The notes below the pieces were generated by a model. It was given only the letters and a program-made list of their open reading frames with translations. It made no database searches and was not told the origin of the DNA. A stretch of 64,000 nucleotides of DNA. Source: Bacilli bacterium. Its GTDB lineage: Bacteria; Bacillota_I; Bacilli_A; RF39; UBA660. Both the position numbers and the translations under genes were made by a program. Positions 1-49,348 of the stretch are shown piece by piece. The stretch covers positions 14,444 through 78,443 of the forward strand of contig JAFXXX010000008.1 of assembly GCA_017542065.1 (NCBI GenBank), written 5' to 3'. Within the stretch, counting starts at the first letter, position 1; every line of letters begins with the position of its first letter.

Positions 1-3000
1 ATTAACAGCAGATAAGTTTGGATTACTTACTATATCATCTGCAGAATCATCTAATAAAGTAATCTTAGCATGTCCATTACCAAAGTTTCCAGACATGTAT
101 CCAGATGATGTATAGTCTGGCATTTCTTCAGACCCATTCTTCATAATAGCATTTGTTAAACTATCAGATACATATGAAGAACCACCAGTTCCACTAGAAC
201 CACCATAGTATCCTCCACCACTACCTGTATCACCATAACCTAAACGTGCTGAAGCAGATTGGTTACCACCGTTATTACCTTTAGCACCAGCTCCACCGGC
301 AACTATAATTCTTTGTTCATATGAAGCATCACTACGTTTATTTATTGTTATTCCATTATCATAAGTCCATATATTATCTTCACTTGATAGAGAAATATCT
401 GTAGCTCCTCCTCCAGTACCAGAAGTATACCAGTCATTAATAACACCACCATTATTAATTCCTCCACCATTATATGAACCAATATAAGAATGTGTAGATG
501 CTTTTCTACCAGATGATCCCATTTCACCAACGTGAATATATAATTTATCACCTTCATTAAGAGATATTATTCCAGAAGCATATGCTCCTTTACCACCATA
601 CACAGCACAAGTATCTGTAGCACAGCTACTATATGATCCTGCTGCAGAACCAGATGCACCCCAAGTTTCTAATTTATATAAACCTGTTTTTGGTGCGGTA
701 AATTCTTCTTGATGTCCAACATAAGAATAATTAAATGTTCTTTCAACATTCTTATTGTTTTCTCCAACAGTTAATACTCCACTATTATTTACTGCAGTTC
801 CATAACTTGGATCCACTATAGTATTTCCAATAATAGTTAAGTAACTACCAGAATTATTTACAAATGCAGTTGATGATTGATTTTTAATATTATTAAACTT
901 TGTATTATTAATAATCATCGAAGAACTATTACTTACAACAGTTGTAGCACTTGTAGCTGTTGAATTAACTATAGAATCATTCATTTCTAACTTAGATCTA
1001 TATTGAACACCAGCCCACCAACCATCAGTTCCATTATAGTTACTAATTACTGTACCAGATCCATTAATAGTAGAACCATTAACAACTGTATCTCCTCTAT
1101 TATCCATAGAACTAAATGTTGAATCATTTATTGTAAGATAACTATAACTATTATATACATGAGTAAGTGTAGAATTATCTACAGTTGTTATTCCAGAAGA
1201 TGATACACTTAATGTTCCATTTAAATTTAAATTACTTAAATATATCTTATTAGGATCTTTATTTGGTGCAACATAGAATGCATCATTACCAGTAGATTTA
1301 AAATTCGAATTAGTTACTATTACGTCATCTACTGACATTTCATAGAAACCAATTCCAGCTCCAGTTGCATTAATATTTGCAAATTTAACTGGTGCTATTG
1401 CCATGTTATAAACTGCAATTGCTCCTGTTGGAACAGTATTAATATTAATATTACTAATTAATGGAGTTTTACTTCTATTAACTAAACCATAAGCACTACC
1501 ATTAACATTTAATTTTCCACCATTACCAACTATTTCACCATTTGTTTCATTATAAATACCAACAGTATTAGTATTGTTAGAGTTTATTTCAAAATCTCTA
1601 TTTAAAATTAATGTACCTCTATTTTCGATACCATTCTTACCATTAACATTAAGATTAATTGCACCACTATTTAATGCTAATGTAGCATACTCATTATTTA
1701 AAATAGCACTAGCAATAGTTGTAGTTATACCACCATGATATGTATCGTCTACTGTATTATTAAATGAAATGTTTGTATCAGGAGTTAGTGTATTAATATT
1801 TACTGAATCATCAAAATTAATACCTTGAAGATAGTCAGCAAATTCAGGGTTTGTTTTAACACTATAAGTCTTTGATAATTGTTCTCTTAATCCATGTAAT
1901 TGTTCTGTTGGAGCAAGATATGTTAACTTAGCATAACCATTATTAGATTTAGAACAATTTTCAGTAGGAGTACTATTTGTACATGTTGTAGTTTCAGTTT
2001 TGGTATCTTCTTCAGTAGAAGTAGCACAGTTGTAACAAACCATTTTTTTGTTTAAAAGTAGTTCATTACCAATATAACCAGAACCTCCACCACCAGATGA
2101 TTCGGAACCACCGCCTCCACCGTAGAAGCCACCGCCTCCACCGCCTCCTTCAGAGCAGGCGTTTTCAGGAGAACTTCCTCCTAAACCAAATTTAGCAGTA
2201 GTCCATGAAAGCCACAATTCTGAACGTTCGGAAATATCCTCCCAACCATCTCCACCAAGTCCACCAGATGTTTGTGTACCTCCTGTAGCAGCTTGTTCAT
2301 CCCCATGGTTATTCCTATTTGTATGGGTTCCTTTATTACCAATATAGCCACCAGCTGATCCTCCTCGACCAGTTTGCCAACCGTCAATATTGAAACCGCC
2401 TCCACCACCACCGGCAACAATTAAAATGTTTTCTTTATCATTTTCTTCATCTAAATCTTTTAATTCACCAGAAATAGTAGCTATCGATGTGGCACCTCCA
2501 CCAGAAGCACCCCATCTATTAGAATATGATGTACAATCAGCACCGTGTGACGAACCACCACCATTATAACCACCAGGTAAAACAGAATTCATACTTGTAC
2601 TTCCCTGACCACCAACATTAACATAAATATTAGTGTTTTCAGTCAATTCAGTTTCACCAACTGAATATCCACCATAACCACCTATATTAGAAGGAGCAGA
2701 ACCACCTTGTGCGCCCCATACCTCTAGTTTATATAAACCTGTTATTGGTACATTAAATACTTGTTCTTTTTCTTCGCTATCTGAAACATAATCAAATGTA
2801 TATTCACTAGTAGTAAATCCAAAATCTGATAAATAATCTTCAATATGATCTAATTTATATTCATCACTAACCGAGCATCCATCACATAACCCAGCATATT
2901 CTTCATATTCAGCCTTATCATCCAAATATGCAGTTCTTGCTTCAGCATATAGTCTTGATTGTTCAGTTATATAGTTGACATTAGATTCATGTCTTTCTTC

Positions 3001-6000
3001 AAATTCACTATCTGTGATAGTTAATTTACCTTTATTTTGAATAATATAATCATTCTTTTCAGTAGTTAAAGTAAATCCATTTAAATCAAGAACAACTTCT
3101 TTTTCTTCAGGTACTATTATAGAAGTACTTAAAGTAATATTTTTAAGAATCTCAACTGTATCTACTTTTTCATTAAATACTGGTTTATCAAAATACATAT
3201 TGTTTATTTTAGTATATGAATCAGGATTGAATGAATAAGCATCATTTATATTATCAAATAGTCTTACTTCTTTTATAGTAAATGTATCAGAATATCCATC
3301 ATCAAATTTACTTTTTGCATATCTAAAATGAATATAATTTTCTTCATTACTATTTAATGTAATAATTGAAACTTGATTATCTTTAGAACCCGAAGTTTGA
3401 AATCTAACACCCTCTGAATTAGATGGTGTATTTGGCGAATTAGTTACATGGATATAACCATAATCTGAACCTTCACTACTTATAGAAGTTCTAACATATA
3501 AATATTTCTTTTCTGTAATTCCAGTTAAATCAATTTTAAAATATGTATGAGCAACTCCATAGCTTACACCTTGGTTATTACTAACATAATATGAACCATC
3601 TACAGAGCTTATTTTAAAATCTTCTCCATTTATATATATCTGTAAGTTTTCAGTATTATCTAATTCTTCAGGAGTTAATTCTTTATTAAAAATTTTAAAA
3701 TTATATATTGCTCCAGTAAAATTATTACCACTTGATCTTGTAGCTATATAACTATTTGTATTTGCTCCATTAGCAAAATTAGAATATTGTGTAGTTTCTA
3801 ATGCAATTCCGTCATAATATAATTTATATACATCATCTTTATATGTTAATAGTAAACTATGAATATTCCCATCATCTATAGTTTCAGGCATTACAAATGT
3901 ACTATAATGACCACTATTTGAAATAATAATACTAGATGACCATAATGCTATACATGTTTTTTCAGCAGATGAACCCATATATAAGAATGAATTACCTTTA
4001 TTTGGAGTAGTAAACTCAACATATATAGATTCTTCGTAATTATCTAAATTTAAATTAGCATTTGACATATAAGCATAATTAGAACCATTAAATGTTAATG
4101 CATTATTAGTAGCATTTGGAATTAATTTATTTGTACCAATAGATATATCAGTTGATGCAGAGTTCTTAATTTTAACAAGATCATAATCATATTTAATGAA
4201 CGTATATGTATCGTTATCATTCTTTAAGAATTCAGTTGTTTCTACTTCATCTACTGAATTTTTCTTTACAAAAGTCATACTGTTAATAACAAATTTTAAA
4301 CCTGCACTATACCAGTTATATTCGCCAAAGTGTAAATATGTTAACTTACCTTTTTCAAGAGTTACCGAATAATTTCCACTAGTAGACCAAATAGTTTCCA
4401 TAATTTTAGGAGCAGAATCATATCCAATATACTTAGAATTATCTGAAGTATACATCCAGAATCTAGCAGCACTACTAGTTGATGTAATACTTAGATTTAC
4501 AATTAATTCTAAATCTTCATCAACATTAGTTAAATCAAATGCAGCATATGAATGGGCAATAGTGTTACCACTTATTCCAGTATCAGAATTTATATAAGTT
4601 CCATCTTCTTGTTTAACAAAAGGATAATAATCAACATCATTATAAAGAACTATTTCTCTATTTTCATTACCTTCTCCAAGTATTCTAAAGTTTGAAACTT
4701 TGAAACCTTCGTATCTATTAACATCTCCTCCACCCTTAACAAAGCCAAAGTAAACATAATTTACTTTACCTTTTTCAAGTTTATAGAACATTGAAAATCT
4801 TCTATCATTTCCAGTAAGTCTTAATATTTGATTTCCAGTAGTAGATAAAGAATCACTAACAGATATATAACCATATGAACTTGAACTATAAGTATCAGCT
4901 AAACAATCAAATACTATAAATTGATCTTTATCATAATCAGTTAAATCTATTTTTAAATAAGATAATGCTGTTGTATTAGCAGTAGATTGATTACCACTAT
5001 AAATTTCATCATTTACAGCATCATATATAAATCCATAGTCTCCTGCTTGTTTTATTTTTGATAATAGTTTCGCTTCTTCAGTAGTAAATGAACCAGATCT
5101 AGTTGAATCAAAAGCATTAAGTCCACCATTGATTTTTAATTTTGCATAATAAGTACTTCTTATTCTTGCTTCTGGATCAGTAACTATATCAAGTGTACCA
5201 ATATTCTTATCATTTTCTCCTGTAAATACTACGTTATATGAATATTGTGTAATAACATCTTCACCATGATCTATCATCGCAGTTTCTTCAGATATAAGTT
5301 TTCCATCATAGAAATGGAATTCATTATTTTGTTCTATAGCATTTATTTTTCCTTCAATAATAGGTCTATCTAGTTCTGGATAAATAAATGTTTCACTTGG
5401 TTCAGATGAACCATCTCCTAAAACAAATATATTATTATTTATAATTGCTTTATCTATATTACCTTTAACAAATCCAATTGATTCATGTTCATCACCATTC
5501 ATTCTGGGATTTCTATCTACTATTTGTAGTTTTCCATTGTTAATAAATGTAGCATTTTCATTACTTGTTATCCCTCTTCCATCAAGATCTATTGTTATAT
5601 CTTGATTAGAAGCTATTACTACACTTTCATTTACAACAGGTAATATTGGATTAGTTTGAATAGTACACTGAATTTCAGCACAGTAATTAACTGCAGCTTG
5701 AATACTATCAAACATTAAGAATTCTTTACCATCTTCTAAAACAAATTCTTTAGTATCTGGATCTACTGTATACCATAAGATTCCATTTTTACCAACTACT
5801 CTAGCAACATATGGATGAGTAGTTACTTCTACTTCTTTTTCTGATACATTACCAACATAGTCTTCTGCAACTATCTTAACAATATATTCAGTATTATCTT
5901 GAACACCATAGAATGTATGATCATAATTTTCAGCATGATCTTTTATTCCATCAAATGTATCTGATACATAAGTTAATGTATCATCATAAACTAATGCATC

Positions 6001-9000
6001 TTTTTCTTTAACGTATAAAGTAAATTTCTTAACACCAGAACCAGCATCTTGTGCAGTACCACTAACTGTCATATTAAATGACATAGATCCAGTACCTGGA
6101 TTATTAATTGTTGGTGCAATACTATCAACGTTGATTATATCTTCAGTAGCATTTGGACTATATATATTATTCTTTTTAGCAAATGCTGTAATAATAGTAT
6201 TTTCATATACTTTAAATGGACCAGTATATTCTACTGCATCACCATCACCAATTTTATAATATAAAGTGTATTCTGGATCGTCTTTACCAGATGTAATAGT
6301 AACTGTATCACCACATTCATCATTACTTGAATTAGAACATACCCAAGTTCTATTAGTTGTTTCATCTAATGTTGGTGTATATGTAATAACTGGTTCAATG
6401 ACCATTTCATATACAGCATATAAATCTTTATTTGTAGTTATATGAGTATCAAAATCAAATGGATTAGTTCCATCCTCAGTCCAATATAAGAATATACCAT
6501 GAGCTTTAGTTGGATTTTCACTAGGAGCTGTAGTTGTTGTATTCCAATCTACTTCATCAGTTGAATAAACTGTATCTTCATTATGATATACAACATTAAA
6601 CTTATTAATTTGATAATAAGCCTTTAAATTTTTATCCCCAGTAGAACCTGTTGGAATACTAGTTATTATATTATTACCTTCTTTATAATGTAAGAAAGTA
6701 TAACCTTCTTTTTCTGGTACATTAAATGTAATTTCATCACTTTCAATTGTATATCTATCAATGTTTGTAACACCTTGTGGTAAATTACCGCCATCATAAT
6801 CATAAGTAATATTATAAACAATTGGAGTATAGTTTGCTAAGAAACTTCTATGACCTATACTACCAGTTGGAATAGTTACTGTAGTATTTTCATTACCAAT
6901 TAAATCTGTTCCAGACCATCCTTTAAATGTATATCCATTCTTACTTGGATTATTTAATGTAATATCATCGCTTTCAATTGTATATTTATCTGGATTAGAT
7001 TTACCAGTTTCATAATTACCATCATTTAATGTATATGATAATGAATATTCAATTGCTCTAAAGTTTGCTGTATATTCTCTATTTCCAGTTGAACCAGTTG
7101 GAATTACTACTGATGTAGATTTATCAGTAATATCTGTTCCAGACCATCCAATAAATTCATAACCTGTTCTAGTTGGATTATTTAATGTGATAGAAGCTGA
7201 CTCTATGTCATATCCTGTTGGATTTCTTAAAGCAGTTTCTTCTTCAGTCGTTAATCCATGATAAACAATCTCATAAGGAATAACCTCATAATTAGCAGTA
7301 TATGCTCTATCTCCTGCTGAACCTTTAGGTATAGTAACAGTTGTAGTATTACCTGTTAAACCAGTTCCTGTCCATCCAAGGAATGTATATCCGTTCTTAC
7401 TTGGATTATTTAATGTAAATGTCTCTGTTTGTCTTGTATAAGTACTTGGATTAGTTTTTCCTTCCGCATATACACCATCATTTAGATTATAAGTGATAGC
7501 ATAATCATCAGCATTTTCTCTCCATACAGCAGTATAAGTTCTATTACCTATACTTCCTTTTGGAATAGTTACTGTTAATGAAACATTTCCATTTCCATCA
7601 TCCCATCCAAGGAAATCTTGATAGTTATTACCTTGATCATCTAATCTAGTACTTGGATTATTTAAAGTAAATGTATCAGTTTCAACATTATATTCAGTTC
7701 TATTATTTAATAATGTCTTTTCTGTATCAGTAATATTTTCATATGTAATACTATAGTTTATTATTTCATAGATAGCTGTTAAAGTTCCATCATCATTATC
7801 AAATAAATAAGTTAAATTTTGATAAGTTCCTCCACCTACATGGTCATATCTTATAAAGTTATATCCTCTTTTAACTGATTCACTAAGAACTTTTAAAGTT
7901 CCATAATCTTCAGTAAATGTAACTAATGAAGCATTATCTTCATAAGTTCCACCATTAGGATCAACTGATAATGTTGATCTATTAATTTGATAATGAGCAG
8001 TATATGTTCTCTTACCAGTTGAACCTTCAGGAATTGTAACTGTTTCAGTTACGTCTGATAAACCAGTTCCTGTCCAACCAACAAATGTGAATCCTTCTTT
8101 AGTTGGATTATTAAGTGTAAATGAATCTCTAACTGTATATGTTATTGGATTAGCTACTGCTACACTTCCACCATCTAATTCATATTCAATTTCATAATTG
8201 TTAATAGTATAAGAAGTATATAATTCTGTATCTCCAGTTATTGGATCATCATCATAACAACTATCATATAAAGAGAAACATTTAAATGTATATCCATTAT
8301 ACTCAGGATGATCAATTAATTCTACTGATTCACCCTCTGGAACTTCCACTATAGCAAGTACAGTTTCTTGATCATTATTTGGATTCTTATCAATAAATGT
8401 TACATTATATTTTTTGTTTTCAATTTTTCCATATAATGCTAAGTCTTTAGTAACTTTGTTGTTAAAGTTATATTTATTAGTATAATTCTTATCTGTATAC
8501 CAACCAGCAAAGTTTTCTATATGTGGATCAATGTTTTCTATTTTTTCAGAATTAATAACATATAATTCTTTATAAACACTATTGTTTAAATAATAAACAA
8601 CATATTTATAATCATCACCGTGTGCAATAGCAGTATTAATATAAGTTTTAGCTTCATCTGTTTTAACAATATCAAGAACTAGTGTTACACTAGTTTTTTC
8701 AAATGCATTAATTTCTGTGCCTTCTAATGGAGTATAGAATAAATTATTATCTTCTTTAGTCCATCCTGGGTTTTTGCTTTCATCAAAACTCATGCCTTCA
8801 GGAATAACATCTTGAATTGTAGATATAGTACCTTTTACTTCTCCATCATTTTTTAAATAAATATTATAGTAAATAGAACCTTCAATTGTTTTAGCATTTT
8901 TAACACTTTTTAACACTTTAGTTTCATCATTATAATTAAATGTTTCCTTTTTACCATTAACTACTAGATCTAATTTACTAATAGTTTTAGTTATATTTAA

Positions 9001-9759
9001 AGTAAATGGTTCTACTTCTTTAATAACTAGATTTAAAACTCTTCTATTTTGATCAGTAGTTTCTTCAGTATATCTAACTAATTTGTATTTAGTTTCTGCT
9101 ACTCTTACTTCATAAGTATCAATATCACCTAAACTAAATACATATTTACCATCTTCTTTAGAATAAGTTTTCTTTACTTCTTCACCATTCTTTAATAAAC
9201 TAAGCTCTACTCCAGCATATATAGTGCCTTCTTCATCTAATATAGTACCTTCTACTGATTTACCAGTTATAGTAACTGGATCTACATTTATTTTAGACTT
9301 GGATTCATCTTCACTATTAATAGTAAATTTTGGATTAAATGTAATTCCATATGGTGCATTCTCTACAATAACAGTTATAACAACTTTATTTTTTGTAGTA
9401 GTAACTGTTATTGTTTTACCATCAGCACTAACTACTGAATCTTTAATTTCTTTAAACCTAGCATACTTATTTTCATTATTGGAAAGTGTACCTGTGATAA
9501 TAGCAGTATCACTAGAATCTTTATTAACTTTAATTTGATATTTTATCTCATCATAGTTATTAGATGTAATCTCATCTTGAACTCCATCTATAACTGATGC
9601 ACTTAATGTATTAGTCTTAGTTAAAATTTTAGAAATTTTAATTGTCTTATTACTTTCATTTATCATAGAAGCTAAACACATTAAAAAGACCAATAATAAT
9701 ACTATTATTGTTGTTATTGCATATTTTTTTAATTTTAATTTTCTTAAAGATTCTTTCAT
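1..9759 (-). CDS. Giant secreted/surface multidomain protein, 3'-truncated by the window edge (>=3253 aa). Absent from the supplied ORF track.
   Basis: Hand translation of the minus strand. ATG at 9759-9757 is preceded by GGATGGTG. The frame then stays open to base 1 (9759 = 3 x 3253). Spot checks of plus-strand triplets phased 1 mod 3 at ~350, 1200, 2040, 3000, 5000, 6000, 7500 and 9000 show no tta/cta/tca. The translation is coherent throughout (MKESLRKLKLKKYAITTIIVLLLVFLMCLASM...GNGHAKITLLDDSADDIVSNPNLSAVN). Confidence 0.9.
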   Translation of the reverse strand, partial: MKESLRKLKLKKYAITTIIVLLLVFLMCLASMINESNKTIKISKILTKTNTLSASVIDGVQDEITSNNYDEIKYQIKVNKDSSDTAIITGTLSNNENKYARFKEIKDSVVSADGKTITVTTTKNKVVITVIVENAPYGITFNPKFTINSEDESKSKINVDPVTITGKSVEGTILDEEGTIYAGVELSLLKNGEEVKKTYSKEDGKYVFSLGDIDTYEVRVAETKYKLVRYTEETTDQNRRVLNLVIKEVEPFTLNITKTISKLDLVVNGKKETFNYNDETKVLKSVKNAKTIEGSIYYNIYLKNDGEVKGTISTIQDVIPEGMSFDESKNPGWTKEDNNLFYTPLEGTEINAFEKTSVTLVLDIVKTDEAKTYINTAIAHGDDYKYVVYYLNNSVYKELYVINSEKIENIDPHIENFAGWYTDKNYTNKYNFNNKVTKDLALYGKIENKKYNVTFIDKNPNNDQETVLAIVEVPEGESVELIDHPEYNGYTFKCFSLYDSCYDDDPITGDTELYTSYTINNYEIEYELDGGSVAVANPITYTVRDSFTLNNPTKEGFTFVGWTGTGLSDVTETVTIPEGSTGKRTYTAHYQINRSTLSVDPNGGTYEDNASLVTFTEDYGTLKVLSESVKRGYNFIRYDHVGGGTYQNLTYLFDNDDGTLTAIYEIINYSITYENITDTEKTLLNNRTEYNVETDTFTLNNPSTRLDDQGNNYQDFLGWDDGNGNVSLTVTIPKGSIGNRTYTAVWRENADDYAITYNLNDGVYAEGKTNPSTYTRQTETFTLNNPSKNGYTFLGWTGTGLTGNTTTVTIPKGSAGDRAYTANYEVIPYEIVYHGLTTEEETALRNPTGYDIESASITLNNPTRTGYEFIGWSGTDITDKSTSVVIPTGSTGNREYTANFRAIEYSLSYTLNDGNYETGKSNPDKYTIESDDITLNNPSKNGYTFKGWSGTDLIGNENTTVTIPTGSIGHRSFLANYTPIVYNITYDYDGGNLPQGVTNIDRYTIESDEITFNVPEKEGYTFLHYKEGNNIITSIPTGSTGDKNLKAYYQINKFNVVYHNEDTVYSTDEVDWNTTTTAPSENPTKAHGIFLYWTEDGTNPFDFDTHITTNKDLYAVYEMVIEPVITYTPTLDETTNRTWVCSNSSNDECGDTVTITSGKDDPEYTLYYKIGDGDAVEYTGPFKVYENTIITAFAKKNNIYSPNATEDIINVDSIAPTINNPGTGSMSFNMTVSGTAQDAGSGVKKFTLYVKEKDALVYDDTLTYVSDTFDGIKDHAENYDHTFYGVQDNTEYIVKIVAEDYVGNVSEKEVEVTTHPYVARVVGKNGILWYTVDPDTKEFVLEDGKEFLMFDSIQAAVNYCAEIQCTIQTNPILPVVNESVVIASNQDITIDLDGRGITSNENATFINNGKLQIVDRNPRMNGDEHESIGFVKGNIDKAIINNNIFVLGDGSSEPSETFIYPELDRPIIEGKINAIEQNNEFHFYDGKLISEETAMIDHGEDVITQYSYNVVFTGENDKNIGTLDIVTDPEARIRSTYYAKLKINGGLNAFDSTRSGSFTTEEAKLLSKIKQAGDYGFIYDAVNDEIYSGNQSTANTTALSYLKIDLTDYDKDQFIVFDCLADTYSSSSYGYISVSDSLSTTGNQILRLTGNDRRFSMFYKLEKGKVNYVYFGFVKGGGDVNRYEGFKVSNFRILGEGNENREIVLYNDVDYYPFVKQEDGTYINSDTGISGNTIAHSYAAFDLTNVDEDLELIVNLSITSTSSAARFWMYTSDNSKYIGYDSAPKIMETIWSTSGNYSVTLEKGKLTYLHFGEYNWYSAGLKFVINSMTFVKKNSVDEVETTEFLKNDNDTYTFIKYDYDLVKIKNSASTDISIGTNKLIPNATNNALTFNGSNYAYMSNANLNLDNYEESIYVEFTTPNKGNSFLYMGSSAEKTCIALWSSSIIISNSGHYSTFVMPETIDDGNIHSLLLTYKDDVYKLYYDGIALETTQYSNFANGANTNSYIATRSSGNNFTGAIYNFKIFNKELTPEELDNTENLQIYINGEDFKISSVDGSYYVSNNQGVSYGVAHTYFKIDLTGITEKKYLYVRTSISSEGSDYGYIHVTNSPNTPSNSEGVRFQTSGSKDNQVSIITLNSNEENYIHFRYAKSKFDDGYSDTFTIKEVRLFDNINDAYSFNPDSYTKINNMYFDKPVFNEKVDTVEILKNITLSTSIIVPEEKEVVLDLNGFTLTTEKNDYIIQNKGKLTITDSEFEERHESNVNYITEQSRLYAEARTAYLDDKAEYEEYAGLCDGCSVSDEYKLDHIEDYLSDFGFTTSEYTFDYVSDSEEKEQVFNVPITGLYKLEVWGAQGGSAPSNIGGYGGYSVGETELTENTNIYVNVGGQGSTSMNSVLPGGYNGGGSSHGADCTSYSNRWGASGGGATSIATISGELKDLDEENDKENILIVAGGGGGGFNIDGWQTGRGGSAGGYIGNKGTHTNRNNHGDEQAATGGTQTSGGLGGDGWEDISERSELWLSWTTAKFGLGGSSPENACSEGGGGGGGFYGGGGGSESSGGGGSGYIGNELLLNKKMVCYNCATSTEEDTKTETTTCTNSTPTENCSKSNNGYAKLTYLAPTEQLHGLREQLSKTYSVKTNPEFADYLQGINFDDSVNINTLTPDTNISFNNTVDDTYHGGITTTIASAILNNEYATLALNSGAINLNVNGKNGIENRGTLILNRDFEINSNNTNTVGIYNETNGEIVGNGGKLNVNGSAYGLVNRSKTPLISNININTVPTGAIAVYNMAIAPVKFANINATGAGIGFYEMSVDDVIVTNSNFKSTGNDAFYVAPNKDPNKIYLSNLNLNGTLSVSSSGITTVDNSTLTHVYNSYSYLTINDSTFSSMDNRGDTVVNGSTINGSGTVISNYNGTDGWWAGVQYRSKLEMNDSIVNSTATSATTVVSNSSSMIINNTKFNNIKNQSSTAFVNNSGSYLTIIGNTIVDPSYGTAVNNSGVLTVGENNKNVERTFNYSYVGHQEEFTAPKTGLYKLETWGASGSAAGSYSSCATDTCAVYGGKGAYASGIISLNEGDKLYIHVGEMGSSGRKASTHSYIGSYNGGGINNGGVINDWYTSGTGGGATDISLSSEDNIWTYDNGITINKRSDASYEQRIIVAGGAGAKGNNGGNQSASARLGYGDTGSGGGYYGGSSGTGGSSYVSDSLTNAIMKNGSEEMPDYTSSGYMSGNFGNGHAKITLLDDSADDIVSNPNLSAVN
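55..730 (-). other. Glycine-rich domain copy 2 (ALK/LTK-type Gly_rich family)
   Basis: FTAPKTGLYKLETWGASGSAAGS...YGGKGAYASGIISLNEGDKLYIHVGEMGS...SYNGGGINNGG...SGTGGGATDISL...RIIVAGGAGAKGNNGGN...GSGGGYYGGSSGTGGSSYVS...GNGHAKITLL. Confidence 0.75.
730..1900 (-). other. Right-handed beta-helix-like repeat region between the two glycine-rich domains
   Basis: Many short repeats rich in N/G/T/I (INLNVNGKNGIENRGTLILN, NGGKLNVNGSAYGLVN, LNLNGTLSVSSSGITTVDNSTLT, IINNTKFNNIKNQSS). The style matches the 898-aa protein at 13226..15922. Confidence 0.5.
1915..2770 (-). other. Glycine-rich domain copy 1 (ALK/LTK-type Gly_rich family)
   Basis: FNVPITGLYKLEVWGAQGGSAPSNIGGYGGYSVGETELTENTNIYVNVGGQGS...GGYNGGGSS...WGASGGGATSI...ILIVAGGGGGGF...GGGGGGGFYGGGGGSESSGGGGSGYIGN...NNGYAKLTYL. 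Confidence 0.75.
3260..5060 (-). repeat. Three paralogous ~120-aa modules of unknown family (about 4690-5060, 4265-4660 and 3260-3650), interrupted by a LamG domain
   Basis: Shared pattern: ...(A/V)(L/H)(S/T)Y.(K/A)(I/F)DLT......(L/F).(V/I).......S..YGYI.V......(~40 aa)...G(K).NY(V/L/I)(Y/H)FG(F/E/Y).K......(F)..(V/I)....(I/L/F). Examples: ALSYLKIDLTDYDKDQFIVF, AHSYAAFDLTNVDEDLELIV, AHTYFKIDLTGITEKKYLYV. Confidence 0.6.
3660..4140 (-). other. LamG / concanavalin-A-like lectin domain in the giant ORF
   Basis: LTFNGSNYAYMSNANLNLDNYEESIYVEFTT...GNIHSLLLTYKDDVYKLYYDGIALETTQYSNFANGANTNSYIATRSSGNNFTGAIYNFKIFNKELTPEEL. The F.G.IY.(F/V)(K/R)I(Y/F)N.(A/E)L(T/S).EE signature is typical of LamG-like jellyrolls. 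Confidence 0.6.
5815..6130 (-). other. Ig/Fn3-like domain in the giant ORF
   Basis: IAPTINNPGTGSMSFNMTVSGTAQDAGSGVKKFTLYVKEKDA...YIVKIVAEDYVGNVSEKEVEVTT. The alternating beta-strand pattern is typical of Ig-like surface domains. Confidence 0.4.
6400..8560 (-). repeat. About 9-10 tandem Listeria-Bacteroides (Flg_new-type) repeats of ~70 aa each, inside the giant ORF
   Basis: Recurring pattern Y.I.Y.L(N/D)GG ... (Y/F)T(I/R)E(S/T)..(I/F)TLNNP(S/T)K.GYTF.GW(T/S)GT(G/D)L ... TVTIP.GS.G.R.YTA.Y with a period of ~210-230 nt. Confidence 0.8.
8655..9290 (-). other. Cna-B / carboxypeptidase-regulatory-like domain plus a beta-sandwich module, paralogous to 34715..35465
   Basis: GKSVEGTILDEEGTIYAGVELSLLKNGEEVKKTYSKEDGKYVFSLGDIDTYEVRV is followed by ITKTISKLDLVVNGKKETFNYNDETKVLKSVKNAKTIEGSIYYNIYLKNDGEVKGTISTIQDVIPEGMSFDESKNPGW. 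It has the same order and motifs as the 1483-aa protein (ITKVDLSYNG...SKVLLSVRNSLKA...YEDIPYGLVFDSSDPYNAGW). Confidence 0.5.
9655..9759 (-). other. N-terminal signal peptide / membrane anchor of the giant protein
   Basis: Basic N-terminus (KESLRKLKLKK) followed by the hydrophobic stretch YAITTIIVLLLVFLMCLASM. Confidence 0.7.
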
Positions 9760-9788
9760 ACTATACACCATCCATTATACTTATAAGT

Positions 9789-13238: not shown

Positions 13239-15922
13239 CTATTTAAACTAATTACTCTTGTACATAGTAATCCTATAATAGCTACTTCTAATAATAGTAT
13301 ATAAGATAATACATTATCACCTGTCTTAGGAATAACAGGATCCTCTATTTTTTCATAAGATACTGATATAGTTACATCACTGTCAGGCATTACAAAACTA
13401 TTATTTTTAACTTCAATTTGATTACCATTTTCATCTAATACCTTAATAATAGTATTATATCCATCTTTATTAGTAACATTTAAATCTACTACAGATTTAT
13501 AAGGATATTTATCAGCATTAGTAGCTATATTTTCAGAACTATCTGAATCAATTATTACATTATGAATCTTAGTTACTTCATATCTATTATCAGGTAAAGT
13601 AACTACACCATATCCATCTTTTACATATACAATTGGATCATAAGTATATATTCCACCAGAAACAGCTTGAATAATTGTTTGTGGATCTTCTGCATCAATT
13701 ACCTCTGTACCAGTAGATATAAAATTACCATTTAATATTATTACCGAAACTTTATTAATATCATCTTCAGAATTATTCATAGGATTAGCTTCCACTACTG
13801 GAACTAATGCTTGTAAATTACCACCACTAATAACTACTTCTATTGGAAGTTTAGTATTATGTTGTGAAACAGCCAAAGCAGCTCCCACTGATGTAGTACC
13901 ACTAGCATTTGCACCAACATTATATACATTACTTGTACCAGTAATATTTCCTCCATTTATATATAATTTACTTGCTCTTATTTCAATACCTGTAGGTCCT
14001 GAAATATTACCACCATTAATAGTAGTTACACTATTTCTTTGTGGTAAATACATAGCTACTCCATTAGTAGCAATTAAATCTCCACCATTAATAGTAATAT
14101 TAGCGTTTCCACTATGTTCATTACCATTACCAGCTACAGCCATATCATAACCAATAATAGTTCCACCATTAACTGTTAAATCAGTATTTTCAAACATAGC
14201 AATACCTGCTGTATGTTCATTTAAACCTTCTATTCTTCCACCATTAATAACAGCAGAACAATTACCATAAAGATTAACTGTTTGATCATGTGTAGCATCC
14301 GATTTAACAAGACCACCATCCATTGTAAATGTAGAGTTTTCATATACTTGAATTGCTCTTCCATTTGTCGAATAAACAGTTCCATCTTTTATAATTAAAG
14401 TCTTTTCGTTATAGATAACGAATCCTTTATCACCAGTAGCAGTTCCTTGTACAGTACCACCATCTATTTCAGTAGTTTCATAGTTATATATTGCACCATG
14501 TAAACCTAATCCCTCAATAGTTCCACCTTTATGAATTAAATGTCCATTTGTAGATTCATTTTCTTTACCTACTATAACAGAAAAATTAGCATTTGATGTT
14601 ATCTTACCTGTTTGTGGATTAGATGAATCCACTATTGTAACTTTTTCAGTAATATTAATATTATTTTTCTTTAAAGTAATAGTATGTCCATTTAGATCTA
14701 ATACAGCTTCTTTATTCATTACAAGTGGTGAATAAATAATAACATCTCTTTCAAGTTTTATATTACCACCTATAGCACAAGCGTCAGCTAGAGACATTAA
14801 TCCAGGAATACCATCTACAGATGCAGCTGTATTAGGATCAACATATGTCCAATGAGCATAATAAGTTACTGTTTCTATAGGTAATGTACTTTCATTTATT
14901 TGAGTTCCATCATATTCTTCAGTAAACCATCCATCAAATTCATAATCATTTCTTTCAGGTACTGGTAATTCTCCAACAGGATTACCTATATACATTTTCT
15001 TATATGTTGTAGATATAGTTCCTCCTGTAGGATCAAATGTTATAGTAATTCTATTAGTAGGATCTATATAACCATATAATGTATTGTATGTTTTTCCACT
15101 ATCAGTATCAGTATAAGTACCATCTTTCTTTACACTATCATCTTCCATTTCGTTAAGTAAAGTTTGGCTTCCATCATTTACATAAGTTGGAGTTAAACCA
15201 GTTTTTGTAACTTTACCAGTAATATTACTTGATACACTACCAATAATACCATCATAGAAATTATATGAAGTAGCAGCTATAATACCGTAATTTTTGCCTA
15301 AAATTTTTGGTGTATTTGTATTAAAATCATAATCTTTAGTACCAATATTTATTAAACCATTTTCATTATAAATAGCATAAGAATCCTTAGCTATAATAGT
15401 ACCACTAGTAATATTAATAGTACCATTATTTAAGTTATGTAAAGTTGCTCTTTCATTAGTACTTGATTCTAATTTAGCAGTACCACCAATATTTAGAGTT
15501 CCACCATCATTATATATTGATTGTCTTTTACCAGTAGCTATATAATTACCGTCATTAATAGTTAATTTACCAGATGAATTATTATTAATCATACCTGATT
15601 TTTTATCAGAAGTAACAGTACCATTAGTTATTACTAATGTACCATTATTAACAATAACAGTAGCATTTGCACTTGTATTTCTTAGTGTATGATTACCTAA
15701 ATCTAAAATAATATTTTTACCTTCAGGTATTGTAATATTATCACCTAAATCTTTTAATAAAGTAATAGTAGTTTGAGTATTACCTGCAGCAGCAAGAGCT
15801 AAATCAAATGTTTCATAGCCATTATCCCCTATGGCATAGTTATCACTTGCACTAGGCGCAGCTTTAACACCAGTAATACAAAACAAAAATAATAAAATGA
15901 ATAATACTATTTTCTTTTTCAT
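13226..15922 (-). CDS. Cell-wall-sorted surface protein: signal peptide, two beta-helix units, one Listeria-Bacteroides repeat and a C-terminal sorting signal (898 aa)
   Basis: MKKKIVLFILLFLFCITGVKA signal peptide. ITIPEGKNIILDLGNHTL and VMNKEAVLDLNGHTITL are beta-helix entry motifs. ITITFDPTGGT...NDYEFDGWFTE...YYAHWT is the Flg_new repeat. The C-terminus VIPKTGDNVLSYILLLEVAIIGLLC-TRVISLNRKDV is an LPXTG-like motif plus a TM segment plus a basic tail. Confidence 0.85.
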   Translation of the reverse strand: MKKKIVLFILLFLFCITGVKAAPSASDNYAIGDNGYETFDLALAAAGNTQTTITLLKDLGDNITIPEGKNIILDLGNHTLRNTSANATVIVNNGTLVITNGTVTSDKKSGMINNNSSGKLTINDGNYIATGKRQSIYNDGGTLNIGGTAKLESSTNERATLHNLNNGTINITSGTIIAKDSYAIYNENGLINIGTKDYDFNTNTPKILGKNYGIIAATSYNFYDGIIGSVSSNITGKVTKTGLTPTYVNDGSQTLLNEMEDDSVKKDGTYTDTDSGKTYNTLYGYIDPTNRITITFDPTGGTISTTYKKMYIGNPVGELPVPERNDYEFDGWFTEEYDGTQINESTLPIETVTYYAHWTYVDPNTAASVDGIPGLMSLADACAIGGNIKLERDVIIYSPLVMNKEAVLDLNGHTITLKKNNINITEKVTIVDSSNPQTGKITSNANFSVIVGKENESTNGHLIHKGGTIEGLGLHGAIYNYETTEIDGGTVQGTATGDKGFVIYNEKTLIIKDGTVYSTNGRAIQVYENSTFTMDGGLVKSDATHDQTVNLYGNCSAVINGGRIEGLNEHTAGIAMFENTDLTVNGGTIIGYDMAVAGNGNEHSGNANITINGGDLIATNGVAMYLPQRNSVTTINGGNISGPTGIEIRASKLYINGGNITGTSNVYNVGANASGTTSVGAALAVSQHNTKLPIEVVISGGNLQALVPVVEANPMNNSEDDINKVSVIILNGNFISTGTEVIDAEDPQTIIQAVSGGIYTYDPIVYVKDGYGVVTLPDNRYEVTKIHNVIIDSDSSENIATNADKYPYKSVVDLNVTNKDGYNTIIKVLDENGNQIEVKNNSFVMPDSDVTISVSYEKIEDPVIPKTGDNVLSYILLLEVAIIGLLCTRVISLNRKDV

Positions 15923-27223: not shown

Positions 27224-27250
27224 AAAAAAAGCTAGTTAACTCTAGCTTTT
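27224..27250 (-). terminator. Terminator-like hairpin overlapping the sortase stop, just before the deoD SD
   Basis: Minus strand AAAGCTAG-AGTTAA-CTAGCTTT followed by TTTTT, then AGGAGG. Confidence 0.5.
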
Positions 27251-27828
27251 ACTACTATTCTTGCCTTTCCCCCGTCTTCACAAGTAACTAAAGTTACATG
27301 ATAACTATCAAATGTATTTAAATAACTAGTATCCTCTGGATTAACATTTCTAAGTACTTCATATACAGTATAATCTAATTGAACTCCAGAAGTATCAGTT
27401 ATTTTAATAATATCCCCTGATCTTAAATTTCTTATATTATAGAAAAATATTGTACTTCCTCTAAAGTTATGACCTGATAAAACAAATCCACCTTCATTAT
27501 TTATTTCAGTACCATATGTTTTAACTATACCTACATTCATTGCTTTAGAAGTTTGTTCTTTAATAATAACAGAACTAAAATGTATTTTAGGTATTTCTAT
27601 TTTACCTACTATAGTTAAACCTGAATAACTAATACTAGAAGAAGTTTGAGTTTTTTCTTCAGGTTTCTTTTGTTCTATTTTTACTTCATCTTCAAAAACA
27701 TCTAAAGCATTCTTTTCTACAGAAGCTAGTTTTCTTTCTTTAAAAGAATCAAATATCATAAGAAAAGAAACAAAATATAGAGCAAATATTAAAGCAAATA
27801 TTACTATATTCATTACTTTCTTAAACAT
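27232..27828 (-). CDS. Sortase (transpeptidase), N-terminal TM anchor
   Basis: VLSGHN (catalytic His), TLVTCE (TLxTC Cys) and a downstream Arg (ARIVVKA). Confidence 0.8.
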   Translation of the reverse strand: MFKKVMNIVIFALIFALYFVSFLMIFDSFKERKLASVEKNALDVFEDEVKIEQKKPEEKTQTSSSISYSGLTIVGKIEIPKIHFSSVIIKEQTSKAMNVGIVKTYGTEINNEGGFVLSGHNFRGSTIFFYNIRNLRSGDIIKITDTSGVQLDYTVYEVLRNVNPEDTSYLNTFDSYHVTLVTCEDGGKARIVVKARVN

Positions 27829-40584: not shown

Positions 40585-40614
40585 AAAAAAAAATTACAAT
40601 ATAAATTGTAATTT
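40585..40614 (-). terminator. Rho-independent terminator after rplT
   Basis: Minus strand AAATTACAAT-TTAT-ATTGTAATTT followed by TTTTTT. Confidence 0.7.
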
Positions 40615-41165
40615 TATTTTAAAGCTTCTAATAATTCAGCTTTTTTCATTGAAGTATAACCTTCAATTTTCTTAGCTTTAGCTAAATCTTTAAGTTCAGC
40701 TACAGTTAGTTTAGATAAATCTACTTTTTCTTCTTTTTTAGTTTCTTTCTTAGTTGTTTCTTTCTTTTCTTCTTTCTTTGGTGCTTCTTTTGTAGTTTTA
40801 GTTACTTTTCCGTTTAATGCATCTTTAGCTTCTTTAACTAATGCAGCAAATGCTTTAGTATCAGAAACAGCTAATTCAGCAAGCATTTTTCTATTAATAG
40901 AAATACCTGCTTTATTAAGACCATCTATGAATTTAGAATAACTAATTTCGTTATTTCTACATTCAGCATTAATACGAGTAATCCATAATTTACGGAAATC
41001 TCTTTTCTTTTGTCTTCTATCTCTATAAGCATAAACTCCAGAATGCATTAATTGTTCTTTAGCAGTTTTATATAATCTGTGTTTAGAACCAAAATAACCT
41101 TTAGCATTCTTAAGAATCTTTTTATGTCTAGCTTTAGTAATTTTTGCTGTCTTAACTCTTGCCAT
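40614..41165 (-). CDS. rplT: 50S ribosomal protein L20 with a 65-aa C-terminal extension (K/E-rich linker plus a Rho_N/SAP-like helix-extended-helix motif)
   Basis: The L20 core is [38 protein letters not shown]...RKMLAELAV (about 118 aa). It continues in frame as [58 protein letters not shown]. Confidence 0.9.
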
Positions 41166-48853: not shown

Positions 48854-49348
48854 CTATTTTTCTATGCAAATTACAACTAATCTTTTTTGAGTATCATCTG
48901 TACATGTAATTAGTGTTAATCTATTCTCATCATTAAATATAGAACTATCAGATACATCCACTATTCTTTTTTCATTAACTATATATCTAAAATCATGTCT
49001 AAAGTCACTAATAATTATTTCATCTCCTACCCTTATTGAATATAGTTTATGAAAAACATATCTATTATTATGACCAGATAATATTATATTTTTACCCTCT
49101 CCTATACTAGAAGATAACTTGTGCATAGACACATAATTTTCATCTATTGCTCTATCACCTTTTTTAATTAGATTCTTATAATTGTATTTAGGTATATAAA
49201 TATAACCTTCATATATAGATGTTATATTACTATCTTTAGAAAGTATAACTTCATCTACTTTCATATCTAATTTATATTTATTATAAGTTGGAATAAATAG
49301 TATAAATAATGATAAAACTAATAAAACTTTAATTATTCTTTTTAACAT
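48854..49348 (-). CDS. Small sortase (164 aa) adjacent to the adhesin gene
   Basis: N-terminal TM segment, ILSGHNN (His), LTLITCTDD (TLxTC) and KRLVV (Arg). The start overlaps the adhesin 3' end by 20 nt. Confidence 0.75.

Follow-up and report, generated by a model that had tools for sequence, protein, structure and literature searches.

The locus described here raises the question of what a glycine-rich domain (GRD) of the type known from the animal receptor kinases ALK and LTK does in a bacterium. It lies at one end of a 64,000-nucleotide stretch of DNA from a Bacilli bacterium, positions 14,444 to 78,443 of contig JAFXXX010000008.1 in assembly GCA_017542065.1 (G000:C15:14444-78443), referred to below as the window. 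At this end a single open reading frame (ORF), found in the ORF list and open at the window edge, encodes the N-terminal part of a giant surface protein that carries two such domains, GRD1 and GRD2. In our judgment it is practically certain that both are genuine members of the family PF12810 with the ALK/LTK fold, and the protein that bears them may well be a fibrillar adhesin. The principal features, with positions in the window and in amino acids (aa), are as follows.

1..9771, minus strand: giant surface-protein ORF, open at the window edge
1915..2757, minus strand: GRD1, full-length ALK/LTK-type glycine-rich domain (aa 2339-2619; PF12810)
1936..2049, minus strand: four-Cys insert inside GRD1 (C2579-x2-C2582-x14-C2597-x8-C2606), located by its Cys positions and absent from GRD2
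52..702, minus strand: GRD2, shortened ALK/LTK-type glycine-rich domain (aa 3024-3240; PF12810)

The part of the ORF inside the window corresponds to the N-terminal 3257 codons of a 5044-aa protein. The whole gene, whose frame was read from the genome assembly, occupies G000:C15 9080..24214 and continues beyond window position 1 for another 5361 bases and a stop codon (G000:C15 9080-14443). The public collection holds an identical protein, P0002, recorded with 5040 aa. The assembly itself comprises 0.90 Mb in 23 contigs, with 26-30% GC, and is 81% complete.

Membership in the PF12810 Family

A first-pass annotation, made from the sequence, had assigned the two segments to the ALK/LTK-type glycine-rich family, and profile searches bear this out. 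The whole protein matches PF12810 (ALK_LTK_GRD, formerly Gly_rich) with an E value of 2e-60. When the domains are scanned separately, GRD1 reaches 143.6 bits (E 1.4e-41) along model positions 7-243 of 243, and GRD2 reaches 92.6 bits (E 4.9e-26) in two pieces (model positions 6-114 and ~165-243), both far above the curated gathering threshold of the family, 24.5 bits. The motifs quoted in that annotation are present in both segments, GRD1 reading FNVPITGLYKLEVWGAQGG … LIVAGGGGGG … GGGGSGYIG … NNGYAKLTYL and GRD2 reading FTAPKTGLYKLETWGASGS … IIVAGGAGAKG … GTGGSSYVS … GNGHAKITLL; the elements it gave as (I/V)VAGGGG and GGGSGY are degenerate in GRD2. The consensus of the Cys insert, YCYNC...TTC...NC, is conserved in an alignment of 85 GRD1 sequences (A1), with C250 and C253 nearly invariant, and non-Gly residues (Y, W, Q, S, N, and K positions) are also conserved there.

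Glycine makes up 24% of GRD1 and 21% of GRD2, as compared with 9% of the whole protein, and its codons in both domains are mostly GGT and GGA. Because of these codons, the GC content peaks at 0.43-0.49 in positions 1951-2550 and at 0.38-0.39 in positions 1-450, against 0.22-0.34 in the remainder of the first 8 kb, so that the Gly codons do create GC-rich patches in an AT-rich region, as had been proposed.

Predicted Fold

AlphaFold2 models were obtained for both domains. That of GRD1, based on 85 homologues, has a predicted local distance difference test (pLDDT) score of 94.9 and a predicted template modeling (pTM) score of 0.92, and that of GRD2, based on 22 orthologous segments, has a pLDDT of 71.2 and a pTM of 0.78. 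Compared with the PDB by Foldseek, each model returned 21 matches at E<=1e-3, and these top 21 were exclusively ectodomains of ALK, LTK, or C. elegans scd-2 (E 2e-8 to 8e-6, probability 1.00), in agreement with the ALK/LTK-like fold suggested at first pass. The next matches were at least 1000-fold weaker (E 8e-3 to 2e-2) and came from phage tail parts, namely the Pam3 fiber (7YPX/7YFW; E 0.02-0.05) and the tail tip of mycobacteriophage Bxb1 (9D93). A sequence profile of the GRD1 relatives, searched against the PDB sequences, found only ALK and scd-2, with a best E value of 7e-7.

The fold, as known from the solved ALK/LTK structures, combines a TNF-like β-sandwich with a bundle of glycine-rich polyproline-II (PPII) helices, into which the loops of the sandwich are drawn out. 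A stretch of ALK was aligned to the profile of the bacterial GRDs, and the PPII segments of human ALK were taken from a published list (PMC13243192). Of the 14 published segments, ~10 have a one-to-one counterpart among the Gly motifs of GRD1, whose Gly runs fall on the helices 740-747, 751-757, 776-782, 816-824, 841-848, 922-927, and 931-943; GRD2 lacks the central Gly block (ALK residues around 869-920). Indirectly, this alignment would fit a hexagonally packed polyglycine-II lattice, a putative feature of the bacterial domains.

Two Unequal Copies

From its N-terminus, the protein is arranged as a signal, a CarboxypepD_reg-like domain, InlB repeats, a LamG domain, GRD1, a spacer, GRD2, and a C-terminal repetitive part. 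The features that surround the two GRDs are the following.

3661..4041, minus strand: Laminin_G_3 / concanavalin-A-like lectin-fold domain, LamG (aa 1911-2037; PF13385, E 1.5e-8, 35.4 bits against a cut-off of 27.6)
742..1854, minus strand: Asn/Ser/Thr/Gly-rich spacer of 370 aa (aa 2640-3010) with short NxGxLxI-type repeats
1..51, minus strand: start of the conserved cap motif after GRD2 (…SNPNLSAVN, then YGITGNGRVIYYDG…), which continues off the window

The two copies had been described as divergent, and BLASTP confirms it: only their first 67 residues align, at 40% identity. GRD2 lacks not only the four-Cys insert but also the middle Gly block. A recent tandem duplication is ruled out by this short alignable stretch, together with the fact that each copy has its own orthologues across ~25 giants; GRD1 and GRD2 are, as far as their sequences tell, old and different subtypes.

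They also differ in their setting. A cap motif, LxxG(E/D)-(10-14 aa)-PxIxGx(T)YGI-x9-[FIY]YDG, closes five repetitive modules of the protein, at aa 1487, 3268, 3686, 4199, and 4743. Because the short linker of the second of these is replaced by a whole GRD2 (…LTVGENNKN[GRD2]SNPNLSAVNYGITGNGRVIYYDG…), this domain is, on the reading of the motif, nested in a β-helix cap loop of the putative stalk, not strung along it. Charged segments of helical appearance flank GRD1.

Identity along the length, measured against this protein across eleven full-length orthologues, is 65-84% at aa 100-1600 and 54-61% at GRD2, and lies at 27-47% in aa 1700-3000, which comprise the LamG region, GRD1, and the spacer (window 771-4671, minus strand), with the LamG domain at 27-40%. 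Residues 1700-3000 thus form a sharply bounded hypervariable core, and GRD1 is inside it. Among the GRD1 orthologues, the columns with a Gly majority, i.e., with Gly in at least half of the sequences, have an average majority-residue frequency of 82%, as opposed to 48% in the other columns, and insertions and deletions concentrate between the Gly motifs. In the GRD2 alignment, too, the Gly motifs are invariant and the loops variable. A hypervariable GRD1, set against a conserved and nested GRD2, argues against two equivalent binding heads, and the bivalent binding device conjectured at first pass fits poorly with copies that evolve and are embedded so differently.

Architecture and Anchoring of the Giant Protein

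Outside the region of the GRDs, three further features are found in the window.

9661..9771, minus strand: putative signal peptide or signal anchor (aa 1-37), basic KESLRKLKLKK followed by a hydrophobic run, read from the translation
9052..9258, minus strand: CarboxypepD_reg-like β-sandwich (aa 172-240; PF13620, E 1.7e-7, 31.9 bits, slightly below the 32.3-bit cut-off)
6472..8574, minus strand: InlB B-repeat / Listeria-Bacteroides repeat array (~aa 400-1100, approximate bounds), from Pfam and NCBIfam

The array contains about nine repeats in all, matched by PF09479 (6 stretches, E 7.9e-33), PF18998 (3 stretches), and NCBIfam TIGR02543 (E 7.5e-46). The spacer between GRD1 and GRD2 has no Pfam match at E<=1 and no PDB sequence match by phmmer; from its repeat pattern it is presumed to be a right-handed β-helix, and PF13229 (Beta_helix) is recorded in the related multi-GRD giants P0032 and P0081. 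The 1787 residues that follow GRD2 have no Pfam match, are repetitive like the spacer, and are presumably β-helical. Across all 5044 aa, Pfam matches neither an EGF nor a kinase domain.

The protein ends in …TLAHQTG-YTRHLYWIITIPIILVLFMLL-KLSKKRETN, i.e., a hydrophobic helix with ~8 residues after it. Most of the orthologous giants end likewise, in (A/S)ELIxx(I/L)QTG, a hydrophobic helix of ~20 aa, and a basic tail, and the same ending is present in six large proteins of this genome (L011:9083-9200 on contig C15; also on C16, C22, C5, and C3). In these (I/L)QTG and HQTG tails, I or H stands where the canonical LPXTG has Pro. In form, the tail is that of a cell-wall sorting signal whose pentapeptide is noncanonical; anchoring is plausible, and the xQTG ending may define a distinct class of sortase substrates in this lineage. 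With a signal-like N-terminus and a sorting-type C-terminal anchor in the same chain, the description of the protein as a surface protein, already made at first pass, is probably right. The window also encodes two sortases.

27232-27828, minus strand: sortase gene, 198 aa (PF04203, E 1.7e-20)
48854-49348, minus strand: sortase gene, 164 aa (PF04203, E 6.4e-19)

Both are candidate enzymes for the xQTG, IPKTG, and MPKTS tails of this genome. Four ORFs of 4309-5076 aa, on contigs C5, C15, C16, and C22, share the C-terminal signal and together take up ~58 kb, or ~6% of the 0.9-Mb assembly; three of these giants (C15, C16, and C22) contain GRDs, the fourth with the same tail being that of 4309 aa.

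Relatives and Distribution

The query aa 2320-3257 retrieved 335 giant proteins; wherever these carry a name, it is "InlB B-repeat-containing protein [Bacilli bacterium]". Some ~25 of them, from gut and rumen "Bacilli/Tenericutes" metagenome-assembled genomes (MAGs), are clear orthologues that have GRD1 around residue 2330 and, ~700 residues further on, a domain of the GRD2 type; other relatives have from 1 to 10 GRDs per protein, some of them back to back (seven in P0045; ten in both P0046 and P0018). The presence of two copies as a special layout is thereby ruled out, two being at the low end of a common range. The two-copy layout is common and the PF12810 call is already made by standard pipelines, so that there is little new in the annotation as such; the protein is a new member of a recurrent, unstudied family of ~5000-aa giant surface proteins, found in uncultured Bacilli of gut and rumen whose genomes are small (~1 Mb, 26% GC).

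With GRD1 alone as the query, 1676 short proteins were found at E<=1e-8, some of them under the names "glycine-rich protein" or "glycine rich domain-containing protein". Out of 1.84 billion cluster representatives in a protein library, 4841 matched GRD1 at E<=1e-3 and 2140 at E<=1e-10; 130 of the top 150 representatives have two or more matched stretches, some of which are pieces of one domain. Viruses have the domain as well: three PHROG families start with a GRD-type domain, and 65 predicted viral structures (BFVD) match at E<=1e-3, with template modeling (TM) scores up to 0.63. Many of the phage and giant-virus GRD proteins are automatically named "receptor protein-tyrosine kinase" in spite of having no kinase domain, a misleading label propagated from the ALK/LTK domain name.

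Nine of the relatives, each of 420-475 aa, combine one GRD with a prepilin N-terminal cleavage/methylation domain (PF07963), namely P0123, P0124, P0128, P0130, P0152, P0156, P0168, P0211, and P0238; such proteins of related Bacilli would be type IV pilin-like subunits headed by a GRD. Other multi-GRD relatives, such as P0038, P0063, P0074, P0090, P0093, and P0096, carry cadherin-like (PF12733) and Big_2 domains. Precomputed dockerin matches (PF00404) are recorded for P0038, P0063, and P0074, and P0090, P0093, and P0096 have dockerin-like repeat ends, which suggests that the dockerin-linked GRD proteins may be incorporated into cellulosome-like assemblies of gut or rumen bacteria.

Among genomes, PF12810 is present in 10 of 14 of the genus and in 7 of 12 genera of the family. 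Of 15 genomes taken from other families of the class only one has it, and of 14 control genomes none; the maximum among the relatives is 21 matches in one 1.3-Mb genome, a distribution that speaks for an expansion specific to the lineage. The closest named records are human-gut and rumen MAGs, among them "uncultured Tenericutes bacterium UMGS735", "Bacilli bacterium" (Hadza, ruminant), "Firmicutes bacterium CAG:582", and "Coprobacillus sp. CAG:605", names that we take to be typical of RF39-like Bacilli with reduced genomes. A literature search on PF12810 returned one unrelated fungal genome paper only.

Comparison with Known Systems

The bacterial GRDs share with ALK/LTK (7LRZ, 7LS0, 7N00, 7NWZ, 7NX1, 7LIR) the Pfam family, the predicted fold, and a common N-terminal strand motif, xxVPxTGxYxhxxxGAxGG, and their Gly runs align with the PPII helices of ALK. 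Unlike the animal receptors, the bacterial protein has no EGF-like module, no MAM or LDLa domains, and no kinase; its GRDs sit mid-chain in a 5044-aa fibril, GRD1 has a four-Cys insert of its own, and the middle Gly block is missing from GRD2. The identity to ALK is only 14-22% in sequence, with TM-scores of 0.36-0.44. The GRD of ALK and LTK captures a protein ligand, the ALKAL/Augmentor cytokines ALKAL1 and ALKAL2, and we know of no bacterial counterpart of ALKAL.

The statement, also made at first pass, that ALK and LTK are the only structurally understood members is outdated, since the cyanophage Pam3 tail fiber gp24 has been solved with a two-part TNF-like and glycine-rich architecture that superposes on C. 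elegans ALK (7LIR), the root-mean-square deviation being 2.6 Å over 125 Cα (PMC9608196). The gp24 fiber has been proposed to recognize the host through its variable distal tips (PMC9608196), and TFP_Y, its homologue in the Klebsiella phage SCNJ1-Y, binds lipopolysaccharide (LPS) and blocks LPS-triggered DNA ejection, with host-range mutations that map to the glycine-rich domain (PMC12671077). In common with the GRDs, gp24 (7YPX/7YFW) has the TNF-like sandwich and what would be the same glycine-rich lattice, conserved GGGGxGG stems, variable distal tips, and a microbial context, and among the non-ALK entries of the PDB it gives GRD1 its best match, albeit a weak one (E 0.02, probability 0.41, TM 0.22). 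It differs in its 3-fold homotrimeric assembly, its trimerizing α-helical shaft at the N-terminus, and its need for a dedicated chaperone, whereas the GRDs lie within one giant chain. Neither GRD is preceded by a helical shaft, and the two do not have the gp24-type tail-fiber architecture; gp24 and TFP_Y are set beside them for the likeness of architecture, which does not imply formal PF12810 membership of gp24.

A further parallel is offered by the adhesin tip gp38 of the Salmonella phage S16 (6F45), a polyglycine-II sandwich whose PPII bundle, according to a preprint (bioRxiv 10.1101/2023.11.25.568672, citing Dunne et al. 2018), gives hypervariable loops for receptor binding a stable base. 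By that account, gp38 would resemble the GRDs in carrying variable loops on a glycine-rich bundle, and differs from them in having 10 PPII helices on a β-solenoid and no TNF-like sandwich, so that the analogy would be one of principle. Neither the Foldseek nor the sequence searches with the GRDs recovered it. As scaffolds, bundles of PPII helices are noted for their high stability (bioRxiv 10.1101/2023.11.25.568672). Bacterial counterparts are the Bacilli MAG giants (such as P0004-P0033, P0009, and P0026), which bear the names "InlB B-repeat-containing protein" or "glycine-rich domain-containing protein" and are direct orthologues with the same length class, domain order, GRD spacing, and C-terminal IQTG signal, which differ in sequence only (30-71% identity in GRD1).

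Proposed Function and Alternatives

We consider it rather probable that the giant protein is a fibrillar adhesin, in which the GRDs are glycine-lattice knobs showing variable binding loops and GRD1 and the LamG domain set the specificity. The 5044-aa chain would be exported through its N-terminal signal sequence and most likely held at the cell surface by the sortase-type signal (…LAHQTG, hydrophobic helix, KKRETN). The β-helix modules would form a rigid stalk from which the GRDs project as compact knobs, the invariant glycine lattice serving as a very stable scaffold and the loops between the Gly motifs, variable in sequence and length, as the putative ligand-contacting surface. Such a scheme of scaffold and loops would match, by analogy, what has been proposed for the Pam3 and S16 phage fiber tips and what is seen when ALK binds ALKAL. 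That the GRDs are displayed binders is suggested because the domain also occurs on pilins, dockerin proteins, and phage virion proteins. GRD1, with its LamG neighbor, is a likely specificity determinant for a host, dietary, or microbial surface glycan or protein, given its place in the hypervariable core of a chain that is conserved elsewhere, and GRD2, as a conserved, trimmed subtype in a cap loop, more likely has an invariant partner or a structural role. For the giant protein as a whole, we infer surface anchoring, binding, and the class of ligand from these features. More specifically, but only as a tentative possibility, the GRD might be a so far unrecognized glycan-binding module, akin to a carbohydrate-binding module (CBM) or a lectin, whose hypervariable loops, on a polyglycine-II scaffold, would set the attachment of the giant adhesins in this reduced-genome gut lineage to host mucin, dietary fiber, or neighboring microbes.

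Several points weigh against the adhesin. No ligand, binding assay, or expression record was found for any cellular GRD protein, and the GRDs are in the middle of the protein instead of at a free tip as in phage fibers. The gene neighbors (thioredoxin-like, Y-family polymerase, pseudouridine synthase, Ppx/GppA, DNA-alkylation repair, GH3, and CAAX protease genes) are housekeeping and give no functional hint. The GRD2 model has only medium confidence (pLDDT 71), both models reach no more than modest TM-scores against ALK/LTK, the sorting motif departs from the canonical LPXTG and lacks its L-P, and the loop variability could reflect relaxed constraint instead of diversifying selection.

Two of the other explanations for these domains have very little in their favor. 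The null set out at first pass, namely that the segments are simple low-complexity Gly linkers with a chance likeness to the family motifs, can point to a Gly content of 21-24% and to the fact that BLAST-type tools mask much of both segments. It is ruled out by profile scores 4-6 times the curated cut-off over the whole length of the PF12810 model, by a confident folded model with β-strands and ordered Gly segments, by structural matches exclusive to ALK/LTK in the Foldseek search, and by the conservation of non-Gly residues too. An ALK-like signaling receptor, in which ligand binding by a GRD is relayed across the membrane, is a highly improbable reading as well. The receptor-kinase ectodomain fold and the single C-terminal transmembrane helix would fit it, but only ~8 residues (…KLSKKRETN) follow that helix, a kinase or any other cytoplasmic domain is lacking, the tail is shaped like a sorting signal for sortase, and no EGF-like module comes after the GRD.

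More serious, and yet unlikely, is a purely architectural role, in which the GRDs are rigid knobs that stiffen or space the fibrils or pack them into a coat, without a specific ligand, and binding is left to the InlB repeats and LamG. The internal position of the GRDs, the nesting of a comparatively conserved GRD2 in a structural cap motif, the stability of PPII bundles as scaffolds (bioRxiv 10.1101/2023.11.25.568672), and a copy number that varies freely from 1 to 10, like that of a spacer, all speak for it. Against it, GRD1 is in the most variable segment and the variability concentrates in its loops, the stand-alone GRD proteins fused to prepilin or dockerin modules look like displayed heads and not spacers, and every GRD-type domain of known role (ALK, LTK, Pam3 gp24, and TFP_Y) binds something. 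A sub-case of binding, to which we give a somewhat smaller chance still, is that the GRDs recognize other bacteria, through LPS, teichoic acids, or capsules, for attachment or competition, as a cellular reuse of a phage receptor-binding module. Leaving ALK aside, the closest structural matches do come from phage tail parts, the Pam3 fiber and the Bxb1 tip (E 8e-3 to 2e-2), 65 viral models match at E<=1e-3, three PHROG families start with the domain, a gp24-type fiber binds LPS (PMC12671077), and a genome of ~1 Mb has several giant surface proteins. However, these phage matches in the PDB are weak, nothing indicates an epibiotic lifestyle for the lineage, attachment to dietary fiber or to the mucus of the host is also compatible with these data, and the dockerin-linked relatives point to polysaccharide-degrading assemblies, not to cell-cell contact.

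Other Features of the Window

A ribosomal protein L20 gene (window 40614-41165, minus strand) has a C-terminal extension that matches Rho_N (PF07498, E 1e-7), an unusual fusion.

Implications

The experimentally understood examples that we found are the animal ALK and LTK and phage tail fibers of a similar TNF-like/glycine-rich architecture, and what the cellular GRDs bind is a question of some value. If the binding role is true, it would be the first function for PF12810 in cellular prokaryotes, in a domain carried by thousands of bacterial, phage, and giant-virus proteins, and the polyglycine-II scaffold is of interest for protein design. Should the glycan-binding reading be true, it would provide the first function for the cellular PF12810 proteins, which are most of the 4841 GRD1-matching representatives, and one fold would link phage receptor binding, bacterial adhesion, and ligand capture by ALK. 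For the uncultured, metabolically dependent gut Bacilli that encode them, the giants are probably central to attachment in their niche.

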